Virus record (IMG/VR): IMGVR_UViG_3300028610_001072
Coordinates: 1-64,000 of that record
Source of the DNA: a virus
DNA length: 64,000 nt
Reading direction: 5' to 3' (one strand)
The translations under genes were made by a program, and so were the position numbers. The number at the start of each line of letters is the position of its first letter. Position 1 is the stretch's first letter. A model generated the notes under the pieces. The model worked only from the letters and a program-made list of their open reading frames with translations. It was not told the origin of the DNA and ran no database searches. Shown here one piece after another: positions 5,628 through 13,561 of this stretch.

Positions 5628-5705
5628 TGGGGTGCAAGGGGGGAGTCGAACCCCCAATCTCTCGGGCCACAACCGAGTGGCTTTACCAATTTGCCCACAA
5701 GCACC
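5628..5705 (-). tRNA. tRNA-His (GUG)
   Basis: Minus strand folds as a cloverleaf: anticodon stem CTCGG/CCGAG with loop TTGTGGC, T-arm GGGGG-TTCGACT-CCCCC, encoded CCA, G-1 and C73 His identity elements. Confidence 0.92.
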
Positions 5706-5712
5706 ATAATTC

Positions 5713-7923
5713 TCATATTATCAGATTCCTTTTGGTTGTTACCTTGAGGTCGGCTCGGAGATCGGATTCCGTCTGCCCTAGATGCTGGTCAATATCCTGA
5801 GCAAGCTGCTCCATACCGCCGCTTATAAGTGATGTGCTCTGGGGAGTTACCTTACCGCTTCGCTCGATACCCAACTTTGCCATCCGGGAGTTGAGAGTAT
5901 TCACCCACTTGACCCAACTCTGGTAAAGCATATCCACCATTGGCTCTGACCATTTCACCTTGTACCGTGCCCTGAGCCAGATGCGCATCTCAGCATTATT
6001 GCTCGGTTTCTTCTGGTTGGTATCGACAAAATCTTTGTAGGCTATATCGAACAGGATTAGCATTTGATCCAGCTCTTTATCCACATCCTCTTCAGAGTCT
6101 TCCCCTACATCGATGCTGAGCCGCTTGCCTTGGTAGCCATACTGGCAGATCAGATTATTGCAGATCACGGTTGCGTCCCAGACATCCTTTGAACCACCAT
6201 CCGGGTGATCGATCTTGTGATTGCCCTCGAGAATGATTTGGTGCATTTCAGTTTGCAGTAGATCATGGTCCAGATACTCGACTGCATTATTCCATACCAG
6301 ATGCCGGAACAATCGCCCATAGAGTAGCTGCATTGCATTTGTGAATGATAGCCGCTCGCAATTACCCACTCCCACATCCAGCGCCTTTTGCCGGATGCTC
6401 TCTGTCTGGAAGCTGTCAAAGTGGAAGGCCCGGCTCCGGGGGAAATGATCCCGGAACATCTTCATCATAACATCTTCTACATTCATGTAGTCGATCCCCC
6501 AGCCCGGCTTCTTCGCTTCCCAAACAAGTATAATGTCGATCACCGGCCTGCAATCGATGGTGGTTTCCTTGACCTCTTCAATACCTTCCTTGGTGCGGAC
6601 ATGGTAAGTGAAGGTAGCCACGTCCCGGTCCATCTTTTCAGGGTAGCCGCCCACTATGACCAGCCGGTCCTTATTGATCGCATAGTCGCCGCCCCAGTAT
6701 CGGTCCCGATTATCTCCGACTACTTTCAGGAGCTCCAGTGCGGTGTATGGGACTCGCTTCGGCTCCCCCTTGACTACCTCGTCACGGTGGGTAATGACTT
6801 CCTTCACCTGCACCGGTGATACCAGTTTGGGATTGGCACAATCATTGATCTTGCCAAAGTGAGGCATGAAGAATCCAAATACATTCGGGGGAACTATGGC
6901 CCGCCAGCGGCGGTCGGCATCGATTGGGTCTTTCGCTCGATCCTCTTTATAGGCGGCCTTTTTCGCTTTCTGGTCCTTATTGTTGAATACATACGTTGCA
7001 TACCATGCAGTCAGCACACCGTTGACAATTTCCATCTTGTTCTCTTTCGGAGCCTTGGAATAATAGTCGAAGGTCTCCACCAACAGGTCATTCACTTCCT
7101 GCTCGGGATATGCGAACATTATGGTTAATCGGTGATGGGGATTTGTGAAGCGGGTTTTCTGGTTGGTGTAGGCAGTTTTATATTGATGAGCGGCCACTGC
7201 AAATTTGGCACTGGTATTGGCCCGGCTCGGTTCATCCTCGATGGTGATCCAGATCGTATAACCTTCAACTGATTTGGCCGTCGTATCCAAGCAGTACACC
7301 CGGATGTCTCCGTACAGGTCATTACGGTTGGGGATGATCATCTCTTTTTCTTTGATGTCCCCTTGGCCGAACTGCTTCAGCCTGAAGCCTTGGTGCTCTG
7401 CGAACCAGTTATTGCCGCTGATGGGATCGCGGGTCAACCTTATGATGTCCCCCAGCGATCTATAGAATACGTTTTTGGCCTGCTGGGCATTCACCTGTGA
7501 ATAGTTCAGGATGTCGAATGGCTCATTGTGGGCCAGTCCGAAATAACTATGTGGGTCTTCGAGGCAGCACCAGAGATATATCGCATACACTACGATCCGG
7601 GACACAGTGAAATTCTTTCCGCCACCTTGACCGATTTTCAGGATGGCCTGCTCGACTGCGAAAAACCATTTGGCTGGGTCCTTGCCGAATATCCCATTGA
7701 TGACTTTTTTCTGGGCCTCTGATAGTGATTTGGTGCCGATGAATGTTTCGATGAATTCAATAGGTCCGACGGGATCAGTGCGCCACAATCGGCCTGATCG
7801 CTCTTGGTACTCAGCCTCAGCCATACGGCCAGCTTCCCGCTCATAGAACGCCATCTCTTGCGGGAGCTCACTCGCTGATTGAGACAAGTTTGGTGAAGTA
7901 GGTGTCCTTGTTATTCCGTTCAT
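5713..7923 (-). CDS. terL: Terminase large subunit
   Basis: Walker A IGQGGGKNF, Walker B ITIEDEPSR, C-terminal nuclease KIDHPDGGSKDVWDA; upstream of portal. True start may be 7854. Confidence 0.92.
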   Translation of the reverse strand: MNGITRTPTSPNLSQSASELPQEMAFYEREAGRMAEAEYQERSGRLWRTDPVGPIEFIETFIGTKSLSEAQKKVINGIFGKDPAKWFFAVEQAILKIGQGGGKNFTVSRIVVYAIYLWCCLEDPHSYFGLAHNEPFDILNYSQVNAQQAKNVFYRSLGDIIRLTRDPISGNNWFAEHQGFRLKQFGQGDIKEKEMIIPNRNDLYGDIRVYCLDTTAKSVEGYTIWITIEDEPSRANTSAKFAVAAHQYKTAYTNQKTRFTNPHHRLTIMFAYPEQEVNDLLVETFDYYSKAPKENKMEIVNGVLTAWYATYVFNNKDQKAKKAAYKEDRAKDPIDADRRWRAIVPPNVFGFFMPHFGKINDCANPKLVSPVQVKEVITHRDEVVKGEPKRVPYTALELLKVVGDNRDRYWGGDYAINKDRLVIVGGYPEKMDRDVATFTYHVRTKEGIEEVKETTIDCRPVIDIILVWEAKKPGWGIDYMNVEDVMMKMFRDHFPRSRAFHFDSFQTESIRQKALDVGVGNCERLSFTNAMQLLYGRLFRHLVWNNAVEYLDHDLLQTEMHQIILEGNHKIDHPDGGSKDVWDATVICNNLICQYGYQGKRLSIDVGEDSEEDVDKELDQMLILFDIAYKDFVDTNQKKPSNNAEMRIWLRARYKVKWSEPMVDMLYQSWVKWVNTLNSRMAKLGIERSGKVTPQSTSLISGGMEQLAQDIDQHLGQTESDLRADLKVTTKRNLII

Positions 7924-8860: not shown

Positions 8861-8908
8861 AGTCCCTATTCTCGGTATCGGATATTAACCAACAAGTCGC
8901 TTTAGTGC

Positions 8909-8945
8909 AAAAAAAAAGGGTGAGGCCGCTAAGCCCCACCCTTTT
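8909..8945 (-). terminator. Rho-independent terminator
   Basis: Minus strand AAAAGGGTGGGGC-loop-GCCTCACCC followed by T9; ends the accessory transcript before terS. Confidence 0.85.
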
Positions 8946-8961
8946 CGGTGGTAATCTGGAG

Positions 8962-9138
8962 TCAATCCCTCATCCCTTGCGGGGGTGCTGCTGACTGCCG
9001 GGTCCGTTTGCCGGTGTGTTGTTCGCCATCCTTATGACTGGCCTTTTCCTCAGACTGATCGCTGGATTCGTCTCCAGAGTCACTACCTTCGCCGTCAGTT
9101 TCCGATTCAGTAGTCTCGGTTTTTTCCTCATCGCTCAT
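8962..9138 (-). CDS. Small acidic protein (58 aa; below ORF-track cut-off)
   Basis: Manual translation MSDEEKTETTESETDGEGSDSGDESSDQSEEKASHKDGEQHTGKRTRQSAAPPQGMRD; AAAGGA RBS. Confidence 0.55.
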   Translation of the reverse strand: MSDEEKTETTESETDGEGSDSGDESSDQSEEKASHKDGEQHTGKRTRQSAAPPQGMRD

Positions 9139-9176
9139 GGTATGATCCTTTCCTGTTTACGTTGACTGAGCGTTCA

Positions 9177-9428
9177 CTAGGTTGGCATATCAGGGGTATG
9201 CACTGTGGAAGGATGCTCGGCTTGCCATTGTTCCATCGCAGTGGCCTGTCTGATACAGGCTCCTATCATAGCATCACTTGCCCCTTGCTTGGCGGCTTGG
9301 TTTGCATATTCCCTCACTGCGTTAGGTGCCGCAGGGTCCTGCCCCCTGATTAAGAATACAGGCTCGTCTTCCGGGATGATATTCTCCGGGTCCTGTATCC
9401 TGTTGTAATCCTCTCTGGCATGTTTCAC
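9177..9428 (-). CDS. Small conserved-type phage protein (DEPVFLIRGQD motif)
   Basis: 83-aa ORF, GTG start with AAAGGA RBS; DEPVFxxRxQDxxA motif recalled from other phage proteins. Confidence 0.6.
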   Translation of the reverse strand: MKHAREDYNRIQDPENIIPEDEPVFLIRGQDPAAPNAVREYANQAAKQGASDAMIGACIRQATAMEQWQAEHPSTVHTPDMPT

Positions 9429-9443
9429 GTCGATCCTTTCTTA

Positions 9444-9776
9444 TTAACGTTGACTGGTGTTCATTAAACTCTTCTTCGATAAAATCTCTTCCACTTCCTG
9501 ATATGTTTTCGACTTCCGGCATGGCCTGCATGTTACCTGATCGAGATCGCTTAATTTCTCTGGCTCTCCCTTATCAGCTATTGATTCCCCGAAATCCATA
9601 TCGTCTGCAATTAGAGCCGATGCACAGGAGTCTCTGCCACAGCCGGTGATCCCCCCAATATTGAATAATTTACTCTCTTTTAGGGTATCAACCAGATGAT
9701 ACTTGGACATATCCGGCATCATGCCATACTTCATGCGGCCAGCCCATGCGATTATATAGAATCTTGGCTCATCCAT
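9444..9776 (-). CDS. Hypothetical Cys-containing protein
   Basis: 110 aa; TGCG and VTCRPC motifs; overlaps upstream stop. Confidence 0.55.
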   Translation of the reverse strand: MDEPRFYIIAWAGRMKYGMMPDMSKYHLVDTLKESKLFNIGGITGCGRDSCASALIADDMDFGESIADKGEPEKLSDLDQVTCRPCRKSKTYQEVEEILSKKSLMNTSQR

Positions 9777-10155
9777 TTTTCTGCCACCACATTAATGATT
9801 CTTCAGCCTTGGTTAATGCCAGTGCTCGCTCTCTGGTAGCGATCAATCTCCGTTCATCCTCTGAGAATGTTACAGCCTCTTGTATTTCATTCATCCGGGC
9901 GATCACTTTTTTAAGCAGGTCCTCTGGCTCTTCCCGGCCAACTATGGTGTTGATGAATGTCATCGCCCGCTTATTGATCGCCTCGTATGCAGGGCCGTCC
10001 AATAATGTCAGCAAGACCTTCAGATGATCCGCTGCTATTTTTGACACACCCGCCAGTTCAGCAATATCAAGCACCTCTGATAATTGAACCAGTGCTTCGT
10101 TGGCTATTTTAATAAACTCCCATTGGTCATTGATTAATTGTCGTGGCTTTTCCAT
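9769..10155 (-). CDS. Tad1/Acb2-like helical-hairpin protein, paralog 2
   Basis: EDLLKKVIARMNEIQ...RERALALTKAEESLMWW resembles the Tad1 C-terminal hairpin as recalled (DLLxIVxDRLxxFQ...RENAxALTHxEEALMW). Confidence 0.55.
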   Translation of the reverse strand: MEKPRQLINDQWEFIKIANEALVQLSEVLDIAELAGVSKIAADHLKVLLTLLDGPAYEAINKRAMTFINTIVGREEPEDLLKKVIARMNEIQEAVTFSEDERRLIATRERALALTKAEESLMWWQKNG

Positions 10156-10547
10156 TATTTACCCAGTCCTTTCTCCAGCCAGAGTAATGATTCTTCAGCC
10201 TTGGTGATCGCTATTGCCCGCTCTCTCAGGCCCTTCTCCCTCTCTGGAATATCTGCTAGTGTGAGCTGTGAGGCGTTCATTGCGATGGCCTGATCTTTAT
10301 TCAACCGTGCAATTATATTTTCGAGCAACTGCTCTGGCTGTTCCTTCCCATAAACCATATTGACATATTCCAATGCACGGGCCGCGAGGATTGTATATCT
10401 CTCCCCGTGTAGTAGACTGCTCAGGGCTTCCCATTTGAAAGCCTGTTGCATTTCATCGTGATCCATTGAGACTATCGCGGTGTGTGTATCCTGAATCTCA
10501 CGGATCAGTTGATGCAGGTCATTGATAATGTCTCGGGGGTCTTCCAT
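10155..10547 (-). CDS. Tad1/Acb2-like helical-hairpin protein, paralog 1
   Basis: EQLLENIIARLNKDQ...RERAIAITKAEESLLWL; aligns full-length with 9769..10155; TAGGAG RBS. Confidence 0.55.
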   Translation of the reverse strand: MEDPRDIINDLHQLIREIQDTHTAIVSMDHDEMQQAFKWEALSSLLHGERYTILAARALEYVNMVYGKEQPEQLLENIIARLNKDQAIAMNASQLTLADIPEREKGLRERAIAITKAEESLLWLEKGLGK

Positions 10548-10571
10548 GCTATTTCTCCTATTTAACTTGAC

Positions 10572-12331
10572 TGGGCTTCAACTACCTAATTTTATTCGCT
10601 TAGTACAAATGGGTTTCTATGGAATATTGGCTCGCTGTCAAATGTTGGTTTTCTTCTTGATTCCGGCTCACTTATCTCCTTTGGTTTGCTAAACTAGAAG
10701 TGGCTCACTTTGCGATTTGGGGTTGCTATCGATTTATGGTTCGCTGATGGTTGTTGGGTTCCTTAAAATCTATGGCTCACTCCCTTTAAATGGGTTACTA
10801 GGTTCGATTGGTACGCTATATATTATCGGGTTGCTTTTCTATGTATGGCTCGCTGATTACATTCGGGTTGCTCGATCATTCCGGCTCGCTGCTCTATATC
10901 GGGCTTCTAACTTTGCACGACTCACTTAACATCAATGGGTTTCTATTGATTACAGGTCCACTTGAGTTCATTTGGATTGCTTTGATGCTTTGATTCATTT
11001 GGTCACTTTGGATTGCTATATGTTATCGGTTCACTCATTTTGTTTGGTTTGCTTTCCGCCCGTTGGTTCACTCAAATACTTACGGGTTGCTCTCTGCCTT
11101 CGGTACACTCCACTAATATGGATTCCTTAAATCTTACGGTTCGCTGATATTTATTGGGTTGCTCATTTTACACGGCTCACTCAACTTATATGGATTCCTT
11201 AAACCTTACGGTTCGTTGTAGATCACTGGGATTCTCTTTCTGCCTGACTCGCTTTAAAATGATGGGTTCCTTGACCTTTCTGGCTCGCTACAATCGGATG
11301 GATTCCTTGATCGTGCTGGCTCACTTGTATTTTTTGGGTTGCTATTCCGGCTTGATTCACTTCTGCTTATTGGGTTGCTATTCATCAATGGTTCACTAAT
11401 AGGTAACGGGGCTACTTTTCATTTCCGGTTCACTCAATACTTACGGGTTACTTTCATGTGTTGGTTCACTTGTATGGAATGGATTCCTTTCATAGTCTGG
11501 TACACTGGACATGGCCGGGTTCCTCAGATTCATTGGCTCGCTACCATCGCAAGGGTTTCTTATCAAAATTGACTCACTTGGTTCCATTGGATTTCTCAAA
11601 ACATTTGGTACGCTGTTCGTTCTCGGATTTCTCAATATGACTGGCACACTTCCTTTTGTTGGATTACTGGGATCATGTGATTCGCTACTGTTTATTGGTA
11701 TCCTTATCTGTTATTGGCCCGCTAAACTAATCTGGATTCCTTTGACCTATCGGCCCACTTGCTGGAAACGGGTTGCTGGACTCTATCTCGGTACACTTCA
11801 TGGATTCGGGTTCCTATCCGATATTGGTTCGCCTTTAATACTATGGATTGCTTCTCTTGTTTGGCGCACTTCGTTTAGCATGGATTCCTGACACTACTTT
11901 GATCCGTTTGTTTTCAACGGGTTACTACCGAAGGGTGGCCCGCTTTAACGTTGTGGTTTTCTTAATGTTGTTGACTCACTTTAAGTTGTCGTTGTAATTG
12001 CATACCTTGATTCACTTCTCATCAATGGTTTCCTTGATGGGTATGGTTCGCTTTTAACTCCGGGTTACTTGGTTCCTTGGCTCACTCAACGATACTGGAT
12101 TCCTTGTCATAGTTGGTTCGCTACTTATTACCGGGTTGCTTGATTCGATTGACTCACTTATTCAAAACCGGGTTACTATTTAACGATGGTACGCTGTGCG
12201 TGTTTGGGTTTCTTTTTGACTACGCATCTTACTGGCTCGCTGTTGTTGATTGGGCTACTCAATTCAGTTGGCTCGCTGGCTTCAGTCGGGTTTCTTGTAC
12301 TTTCCGGCCCGCTGAACATTAATGGATGACT
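10572..12331 (-). ncRNA. TIGR-like dual-repeat guide RNA array (~48 units, 36-nt period)
   Basis: Plus strand parses as YGGYTCRCT-N9-YGGRTTNCT-N9 repeated ~48 times (minus-strand sense AGYGARCCR-N9-AGNAAYCCR-N9) with variable spacers; no continuous ORF; directly downstream of a Nop-domain gene. Strand inferred from flanking genes. Confidence 0.9.
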
Positions 12332-12335
12332 TTGA

Positions 12336-12458
12336 TTAATCAGCGTTGCTATTTTTTCGGTTTCGCCGTGCCTTGATCCATCCATAGACTATCACAAGCA
12401 CTCCCGCGATCCATCCAATAATAGGCCCAATAATTAGTTCATGGTGGAGAAATGTCAT
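12336..12458 (-). CDS. 40-aa single-pass membrane micro-protein
   Basis: Manual translation MTFLHHELIIGPIIGWIAGVLVIVYGWIKARRNRKNSNAD; ATGA overlap with the stop of 12455..13351; hydrophobic segment then basic tail. Confidence 0.6.
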   Translation of the reverse strand: MTFLHHELIIGPIIGWIAGVLVIVYGWIKARRNRKNSNAD

Positions 12459-13351
12459 CCTACCTTCCGGTGCTCATCCAATCCCAGTTTCTCAACATGG
12501 TAAGGCTTCGATACCGGCAGACCTTCCAACTGTCTCCACTTAACATAGAGATCAATCAGGAATATCTTCACCATCTTGCGGATCGCCATCGCATGACGGT
12601 GCCCCGGCTTCTCCTCTTCACCATAAACCGGATGACTCTCCAGCCGGTGCTTCTCATTCTCATAGATGTCGGCATATATCGAGCCGGTTCTCAGGAATGA
12701 TGGCCCCAACACACCAATCAATTTAGTCTTTAACAATGGGTTGAAGGTGATCGAATTGCGCTTGGCGGGTTTTTTGTTCTTATCTATATAATCCACTTCA
12801 ACCAAGTGGTTTTTGGTGCGATTGCGTCCCTTACCATCGGGAACTGTGCAACGCTTGGGATCGGTTGCCACATCAAGACCGGCATAAGCCCATAACGATG
12901 ATGGATAATCAGCCTTGTAGATGTCGAACTCACTGATAATGATGGCCCCCATTGCCGGACCAACCCCCACAACCTTTTCCAAGAACTTGGTCCAGAGGGG
13001 GAAAGCTACCAATTCCTTTCCCAGTCCCCGGAACTGGCGCTCTTCCTGCTTCAGCAGGTCAAGGTAATGCCCTATAAGTGTCATCTCTGAGTCTGTGGAG
13101 ATTATGCCCTCGCCTTCCGGGTCCAGTGTGACCACGCCGTCCGTGATCCGGGTATATTCCTTGCGGAGCTTCCCCAGCAGACTTTGCTTTTTCTTATCAG
13201 ACAGGTCTTTTTCCTTGGTGCCGGGATCAATCCCCAGCTTCACTTTAAAATTACCAACCAGCCTATTTCCCATCTGGATGCGTAACTCCTGAATGTCATA
13301 GGTCCCTCTGACCATTGACCTTAATAATTCCCAACTTCTTCCACGTTTCAT
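12455..13351 (-). CDS. tasA: TasA-like stand-alone Nop/IS110-type RNA-binding protein (no RuvC/HNH)
   Basis: N-terminal coiled coil (YDIQELRIQMGNRL), VVGVGPAMGAIIISEFDI...SSLWAYAGL (IS110 Transposase_20/Nop motif), HRHAMAIRKMVKIFL; no DEDD domain, no SG catalytic loop; adjacent 36-nt array; CAGGAG RBS. Confidence 0.85.
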   Translation of the reverse strand: MKRGRSWELLRSMVRGTYDIQELRIQMGNRLVGNFKVKLGIDPGTKEKDLSDKKKQSLLGKLRKEYTRITDGVVTLDPEGEGIISTDSEMTLIGHYLDLLKQEERQFRGLGKELVAFPLWTKFLEKVVGVGPAMGAIIISEFDIYKADYPSSLWAYAGLDVATDPKRCTVPDGKGRNRTKNHLVEVDYIDKNKKPAKRNSITFNPLLKTKLIGVLGPSFLRTGSIYADIYENEKHRLESHPVYGEEEKPGHRHAMAIRKMVKIFLIDLYVKWRQLEGLPVSKPYHVEKLGLDEHRKVG

Positions 13352-13378
13352 CGGTATTCTCCTGTTTTGTTGTTTGCT

Positions 13379-13561
13379 TCAAATTTTTCCTCTCCCGATA
13401 CAGGTGGGACATGCTAACTCTTTTCCGTCCCGCTTGATTGAGCGATCCCCCTTGCACTCCGGGCATATCTTGGTTGGCCGATGCTCTCCCAGCATTTCAT
13501 CAACCTCAGTCTGCATTTCGTCAAGTTGCCGCTGGAGCCTGTCGAGATGGGATTCGCTCAT
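13379..13561 (-). CDS. Small protein with DnaJ-type zinc finger
   Basis: CPECKGD...CPTCIGRG. Confidence 0.6.
   Translation of the reverse strand: MSESHLDRLQRQLDEMQTEVDEMLGEHRPTKICPECKGDRSIKRDGKELACPTCIGRGKI

Follow-up and report, generated by a model that had tools for sequence, protein, structure and literature searches.

A 47-unit array beside a phage tasA gene is most probably the guide repertoire of a dual-repeat TIGR-TasA system

What is encoded by a long row of short, paired and variable segments in a phage genome, and which DNA would these segments address? The question is raised by a 64,000-nt stretch (the window; positions 1 to 64,000 of the IMG/VR virus record IMGVR_UViG_3300028610_001072) of a 101,523-base phage record with 49% GC. 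The initial annotation placed at 10601-12322 a series of units, each carrying two ~9-nt, mostly AT-rich variable segments, and proposed that these spacers keep a record of targets, such as host promoters or defence genes, competing phages, or this genome. Our analysis indicates with high probability that the region holds the guides of a dual-repeat TIGR-TasA system encoded by the phage. TIGR-TasA was first described in 2025 as an RNA-guided DNA binder (PMC12045711), and the natural targets and role of TIGR-Tas are a stated open question of the field (PMC12045711; bioRxiv 10.64898/2026.09.09.750476).

Because every gene of the window is encoded on the minus strand, the array was parsed on that strand. 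It contains 96 repeats of 8 nt whose starts are 18 nt apart, and two repeat types, referred to as edge and loop, alternate without exception. The edge repeat reads AG-Y-G-[A/T/G]-R-[C/T]-C (AGYGNRYC in short form), and the loop repeat reads AG-N-A-A-Y-C-C (AGNAAYCC). The first two bases are AG in both types (38-41 of about 40), and the last two are CC, followed by a purine. This purine is the nucleotide behind each repeat; A accounts for 27-28 and G for 11-12 of about 40 repeats per kind. The gap after a repeat is exactly 10 nt in 81 of the 96 cases and 11 nt in another 11. The nine spacer positions behind the purine hold 0.02-0.48 bits each in position-specific composition. Hence, every 36-nt unit has two 9-nt variable segments, and its order is edge half, spacer A, loop, spacer B, edge half. 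The spacers have 33% GC versus 49% for the genome, which bears out the earlier description of paired AT-rich segments for 47 units; the coordinates given for the region were correct to within about 10 nt. The array and its unusual parts are as follows.

10593..12313, minus strand: dual-repeat array of TIGR type with 48 edge repeats, 47-48 loop repeats and 47 complete units, delimited by parse, composition, covariation and shuffles.
12314..12331, minus strand: leading partial unit before the first full edge, made of a degenerate loop-like repeat (AGTCATCC) and one spacer, from the parse.
12214..12241, minus strand: edge of unit 3 with an aberrant 20-nt spacer A (10-nt insertion), from the parse.
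[quoted passage not shown]
11110..11217, minus strand: units 31-33, of which 31 and 33 are diverged duplicates (72-nt repeat, 74% identity).

The first full edge begins at 12313; at the other end, a last edge truncated to AGCGAATA runs to 10593, about 45 nt ahead of the ATG of the next gene. The pattern of an edge, ten nucleotides and a loop occurs 38 times in the window, always on the minus strand and within 10611-12313; shuffled sequences have 1.9 +/- 1.5 such patterns, and none of 100 shuffles reaches 38. The array has a period of 36/37 nt, and the region 10300-12700 contains a 1.7-kb stretch not spanned by any ORF, the 1-nt length differences between units breaking any reading frame in the array. 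A scan of 9500-13500 returned no Rfam family, and blastn found nothing similar to the region among 50,697 phage records.

The processed RNA of known TIGR systems is cut in the middle of the edge repeat, and one extra base pair joins its two edge halves (Faure et al., 2025; PMC12045711). As the edges of the present array are heterogeneous, it can test this claim internally. In all 47 units, a base pair joins position 3 of the downstream edge and position 6 of the upstream one (adjacent edges; Fisher P = 2e-11). The pairs comprise 22 C:G, 23 U:A, and two U:G, and C:A never occurs. The same two positions inside a single edge are independent of each other (36/48 pairable, P = 1). The covariation hence reflects a constraint on the minus-strand RNA; it sets the unit from mid-edge to mid-edge and identifies the edge repeat. 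Strand, register and edge assignment are fixed by it, and the choice between edge and loop, which had been left ambiguous, is thereby resolved.

The array is not intact throughout. Its damage comprises the spacer of unit 3, the loop of unit 9 and the degenerate repeats at the 5' end, and the guide of unit 3 is probably non-functional or altered. Units 31 and 33, which differ by 1 nt in spacer A and by 2 nt in spacer B, represent the only clear duplication within the array. A small ORF adjoins the 5' end.

12336..12458, minus strand: 40-aa hydrophobic ORF whose ATG overlaps the tasA stop codon (ATGA), from the ORF list and reading of the sequence.

The 3' end of this ORF overlaps the degenerate repeat-like 8-mers AGCAACGC and AGTCATCC, and its product has no family match in NCBIfam. 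Since the arrays of relatives begin 10-30 nt past tas, the ORF may be decayed array sequence instead of a gene, and its gene status is uncertain.

The gene directly upstream, on the same strand, encodes the protein partner.

12455..13351, minus strand: tasA, encoding a nuclease-less TIGR-associated Nop-domain protein of 298 aa, assigned by NCBIfam, PDB, AF2 and Foldseek comparisons.

The public gene call starts at M13 and yields 286 aa. The protein scores 115.8 bits against the NCBIfam family NF052498, 'TIGR-Tas system RNA-guided endonuclease' (cutoff 100), and its sequence matches in the PDB are TaTasR (9mty) and SpTasH (21kl). With a profile, TasR 9mty is found at an E value of 1.5e-22 and TasH at 1.7e-15; the aligned part of TaTasR is solely residues 145-307, past the RuvC domain. 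The AF2 model built with 40 homologues has a pLDDT of 82 and is all-helical aside from one β-hairpin. Foldseek places TasR and TasH at the top, followed by IS621 and then Nop5; the TM scores to TasR/TasH folds are 0.57-0.63, and the probability is 1.00 for both 9mty and 9w04. No Pfam nuclease family was found in the protein. The single β-hairpin of the model, the profile alignment past RuvC and this negative result together indicate that neither RuvC nor HNH is present; the protein is TasA, the nuclease-less form. Near its C-terminus, Y284 and H294 are invariant in the 40 homologues. According to the residue offsets in the phmmer alignment with 21kl, Y284 corresponds to Y289 in SpTasH, whose Tyr/His dyad Y289/H296 processes pre-tigRNA (PMC13421893). 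H294 lies past the aligned stretch and is the likely counterpart of H296. The family of this TasA has 1696 homologues, and the closest Tas relatives share 81%, 75% and 66% identity with it. In IMG/VR, a search with the single protein returned nothing, and relatives were found by a search with the TasA alignment.

For comparison we used 98 related viral and MAG loci, a set separate from the arrays of the three closest Tas relatives. Arrays of the same AG....CC type adjoin tas at 35 of these 98 loci and are always on the tas strand; the longest one parsed has 29 units.

The locus was compared with four groups of known systems. The closest are the dual-repeat TIGR-TasA systems of FpTasA from Flavonifractor plautii (Faure et al., 2025; PMC12045711) and MbTasA (Xu et al., 2026; bioRxiv 10.64898/2026.09.09.750476). 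Like them, the present system is carried by a phage and has a solo Nop-domain protein lacking a nuclease, apparently with the same C-terminal Tyr/His dyad. Like theirs, its array has co-oriented 36-nt units of edge, 9-nt spacer A, loop and 9-nt spacer B, with box C/D-like flanks and an edge closing pair. Features that characterise TIGR-Tas members are found here: a co-oriented adjacent array of ~36-nt units with two repeats and two ~9-nt spacers, a Tas protein with a Nop-type RNA-binding domain, a box D-like start and a box C-like end common to edge and loop, and an extra base pair between adjacent edges (47/47). Three differences are apparent. The first is length, as 5-15 units are most frequent among dual-repeat arrays in Faure et al. 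(PMC12045711), and the mean in Xu et al. is ~16 units when their 65,635 tigRNAs are divided by their 4,126 arrays (our division; bioRxiv 10.64898/2026.09.09.750476). The second concerns the boxes: box D is AG and box C is CC-purine here, versus UG...CCA in characterised TasR arrays. The AG-type version is known here from sequence, and differing box letters are permitted if edge and loop co-vary (PMC12045711). The third is that C:G and U:A closing pairs occur near 50:50 within one array.

TaTasR and SpTasH (PDB 9mty, 9w03, 9w04, 21kl) are the best matches to the Nop and coiled-coil parts, and they share the tigRNA architecture and the correspondence of Y284 with Y289. They differ in having an N-terminal RuvC or HNH domain and in cutting both strands; for the phage TasA, which lacks such a domain, binding only is expected. 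IS110/IS621 bridge-RNA recombinases and the box C/D Nop5 RNPs of archaea have a homologous RNA-binding Nop-type domain (Foldseek ranks 12-25, and a weak NCBIfam match to IS110), and guides made of two short segments. In contrast to these, the present system is free of DEDD/Tnp domains, fibrillarin/L7Ae partners and signs of mobility, and where IS110/IS621 use one bridge RNA, the phage TasA has many tandem guides. CRISPR arrays likewise are repeat-spacer arrays beside an effector gene, are processed to unit guides and also occur on phages. The present array differs in its two alternating 8-9-nt repeats, its split 9+9-nt spacers, and the absence of a PAM, of Cas1/Cas2 and of known acquisition. 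No Cas family was found among the neighbours (10 ORFs searched against Pfam and PHROGs, and 10 more against PHROGs only). A CRISPR-Cas identity, for which one repeat of 25-36 nt, contiguous spacers and cas genes would be expected, is rejected by the two alternating 8-nt repeats, the split 9-nt spacers and the lack of a Cas match.

The array is located 1.7 kb from the small-terminase gene. Sister phages share the small terminase (31-56% identity) and a terminase-like gene (61-73%), and at the syntenic position they have unrelated DNA with neither tas nor array (window 8900-13400 compared with L112, L113, L117 and L118). Hence, the TIGR-TasA module is an accessory, variable island beside the packaging genes. 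No tas was present on contigs retrieved via the tail protein (L107-L110), and neither tas nor array on those retrieved via the terminase-like protein (L111-L126). The surroundings have three further features.

9769-10547 of the window, minus strand: two ~130-aa paralogues just downstream of the array.
5713-7923 of the window, minus strand: 736-aa terminase-like protein past the small terminase; its relatives carry PF27249.
5628-5704 of the window, minus strand: phage tRNA-His (GTG anticodon), just downstream of the terminase-like gene.

The paralogues resemble the Acb2/Tad1 hairpin domain weakly and below threshold (E values of 1e-3 and 9e-3), and may be anti-defence sponges. Insertions of HNH or intein-like type (PF13392, PF14890) interrupt some relatives of the 736-aa protein, and three relatives are labelled as Candidatus Neomarinimicrobiota MAG proteins, which weakly hints at this lineage as the host. 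No cultured relative of the phage was found. The homologues of its tail lysin are all metagenomic proteins.

We propose the following mechanism, in which processing, opposite-strand pairing and repression are adopted from the literature on relatives. Gene order suggests that the array is co-transcribed with tasA from the minus strand; it is the gene order from which this transcription unit is derived, as no promoter-like or terminator-like site was seen in the tasA-array interval or at the array end (minus strand). In one search of sequencing runs, no RNA run was among those listed, and the only match was a DNA run of a subsurface metagenome, which may be the source of the phage. TasA would bind the transcript at the two ends of each repeat, the box D-like AG and the box C-like CC-purine, and cut inside each edge repeat, probably by its own conserved Tyr/His dyad. 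The expected products are 47 different 36-nt tigRNAs, the ends of each being closed by one base pair between a pyrimidine of the 3' edge half and a purine of the 5' edge half. A TasA dimer with one tigRNA would then recognise an 18-bp DNA site that needs no flanking motif. As TasA has no nuclease domain, the predicted outcome is binding only, by which transcription or replication would be blocked with no cleavage; TasA is reported as an RNA-guided repressor (bioRxiv 10.64898/2026.09.09.750476).

The geometry of the site can be derived from published work. In the TIGR-Tas rule, spacer A is complementary to one strand and spacer B to the adjoining segment of the opposite strand, no PAM is needed, and processing yields 36-nt guides (PMC12045711). 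Each cut is made 5' of the base that pairs with spacer nucleotide 5; the break has 3' overhangs of 8 nt, and the half-sites may be separated by gaps of 0-2 bp (PMC12045711). Of the two possible orders, only the one in which spacer B is followed by the reverse complement of A, [B][rc A], produces a 3' overhang of 8 nt; the other leads to 5' overhangs. From this overhang and the 'C-5 rule' we infer that the top strand of a target would read [B][rc A]; the two spacers would pair on opposite strands, each with the 3' half of its strand, and gaps of 0-2 bp would be tolerated. Given this rule and the family features described above, the two halves of a unit almost certainly form one ~18-bp, motif-free guide that reads opposite strands, as had been proposed for this locus. 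That reading is the already published TIGR mechanism and is not new. The literature also confirms the accompanying point that searches with contiguous spacers would miss such sites.

Both [B][rc A] and the opposite order, [rc A][B], were searched wherever possible. With the array masked, the 101,523-base record was searched with the 47 true pairs and 600 shuffled pairs. The best matches have a mean of 3.77 mismatches for true and 3.88 for shuffled pairs, and no unit has a site with fewer than two. Relaxed matching in the own genome, by central cores of 6+6 and 7+7 or by counting sites with 3-4 mismatches, gave no unit in excess and no dispersed motif. Across the 98 related loci (1.23 Mb), the match distributions of true and shuffled pairs are the same. 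Family-wide, matches with at most one mismatch exist for 1.6% of 381 units from relatives versus 1.1% of shuffled ones (1.33 Mb, own and each other's loci). The opposite order, and an alternative register combining spacer B of unit i with spacer A of unit i+1, likewise equal shuffled pairs in the own genome and all loci. Exact scans of IMG/VR with three GC-richer units returned two hits each, which is the chance level; the opposite order, scanned for two of the three, returned zero and two hits. None of the hit contigs has a site for a second unit. A metagenome scan with unit 22 gave no match. Hence, the enrichment of paired matches over shuffled controls by which the initial annotation would have recognised targets is absent from the phage, the related viral loci and IMG/VR. 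As the sites are absent from the phage, we infer that the targets are external to it, most likely in the host chromosome or in competing mobile elements. Xu et al. (2026) give unsearchable host and co-occurring DNA as a limitation for the whole family (bioRxiv 10.64898/2026.09.09.750476).

A relative allows a search of a complete host chromosome. Sporomusa aerivorans DSM 13326 carries, in a prophage of its complete chromosome, a TasA 43% identical to the phage protein, encoded beside an integrase and a CI-like repressor. The 14 distinct guides of this prophage were compared with the complete 6.5-Mb genome. Two of the guides (L092 9733-9804) match the host chromosome at 17 of 18 positions, at the following sites.

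L127 5001-5018 and L128 5001-5018: chromosomal sites of the two Sporomusa guides.

One site is in the intergenic region of codY and flgB, at 65-82 nt ahead of the start of flgB, presumably in the promoter region of the flgB-flgC-fliE-fliF operon. The other is inside a gene for a cell-wall hydrolase with NlpC/P60 and PG_binding_1 domains. Shuffled pairs searched in 1.6 Mb of the genome give an expectation of 0.29 such matches genome-wide (P about 0.035), and matches with at most two mismatches number 16 versus about 10 expected. Both mismatches fall at position 5 of spacer A, where a mismatch is disruptive in TasH. The upstream regions of flgB in two other genomes with related arrays have no match to their own guides. 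The association with the flgB promoter is post hoc, and we take the Sporomusa matches as a weak lead only. They are the sole hint that the 47 phage guides might form a multiplex programme for silencing host promoters and envelope or motility genes and not rival elements, a reading that we regard as unlikely.

Spacer GC is below that of the own locus in 31 of 33 related arrays, with a mean difference of -8 points (P = 4e-9); the difference between spacers and locus is -16 points for the phage array. Spacers A and B are both 57-59% purine, and the value is about 58% across the family. Double-stranded sites sampled at random cannot yield a purine bias in both halves. The AT-rich, purine-rich spacers suggest selection for easily melted sites or for hybrids of purine RNA with pyrimidine DNA. 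Within a unit, the purine contents of A and B are anticorrelated (r = -0.28, P = 0.054 for the 47-unit array; r = -0.10, P = 0.041 for 381 units of relatives), weakly pointing in the direction expected if the halves read opposite strands of one skewed site. Spacer A has no palindromic or direct-repeat relation to spacer B within a unit. Codon-frame coherence across the halves is lacking in every geometry and gap (z <= 1.9), and so there is no evidence for coding targets.

Another reading is of an array that is kept structurally while its spacers drift, aimed at nothing now and being raw material or a remnant. Consistent with such drift, the DNA searched has no enrichment of paired matches, both spacers share the A>T and G>C skews of the phage coding strand, and some units are damaged, as described above. 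In addition, no adaptation machinery is known for TIGR arrays (PMC12045711); calling the spacers a 'record', as in the initial annotation, assumes CRISPR-like acquisition. However, the closing pair is maintained in 47 of 47 units by compensatory change and all family-invariant residues of TasA are retained, which argues that the RNPs are under selection. Moreover, the 94 spacers resemble each other only at chance level (17 pairs at most two mismatches apart versus 15.3 +/- 3.8 by chance), different from what recent duplication and drift would produce, and reuse of half-spacers is at chance level save for units 31 and 33. The DNA searched also left out the host. We consider drift quite improbable, and prefer the reading of a guide array with external targets.

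Regulation of the phage's own genome, either as a temporal switch acting on its own promoters or through an operator-like dispersed motif, would suit proteins of the TasA family, which repress (bioRxiv 10.64898/2026.09.09.750476). It is at odds with the search of the whole record, in which sites below two mismatches are absent, near matches are as frequent as with shuffled pairs, and the few sites with three mismatches are scattered with no common motif. As regulation by near-perfect pairing it is largely refuted and very unlikely overall, and we dropped the own genome from the proposed targets at up to two mismatches. That the repeats act as DNA, in the manner of iterons, centromere or packaging-related repeats, would fit the nearby small-terminase gene and the regular 18-bp spacing, but it is disfavoured and hardly credible, as the covariation is strand-specific, RNA-like (U:G accepted, C:A never) and between adjacent repeats, a cognate tas adjoins the array here as at 35 of the 98 related loci, and the array is missing from sister phages that have the same terminase genes.

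The probable guide array of a TIGR-TasA system described here adds a well-annotated member to the family, unusually long and with an unusually informative closing-pair polymorphism; it is no new kind of system. The searches provide a clean negative: the phage is not itself a target of its TasA. The locus is a good test case, having 47 guides (among the larger repertoires), a long 101.5-kb record and a register fixed by compensatory changes. Its 47 defined 18-bp queries, together with the shuffled-pair control, are ready for a search of the host or of the source community. If the guides do silence host genes, they would provide the first natural targets and a biological role for TIGR-TasA.
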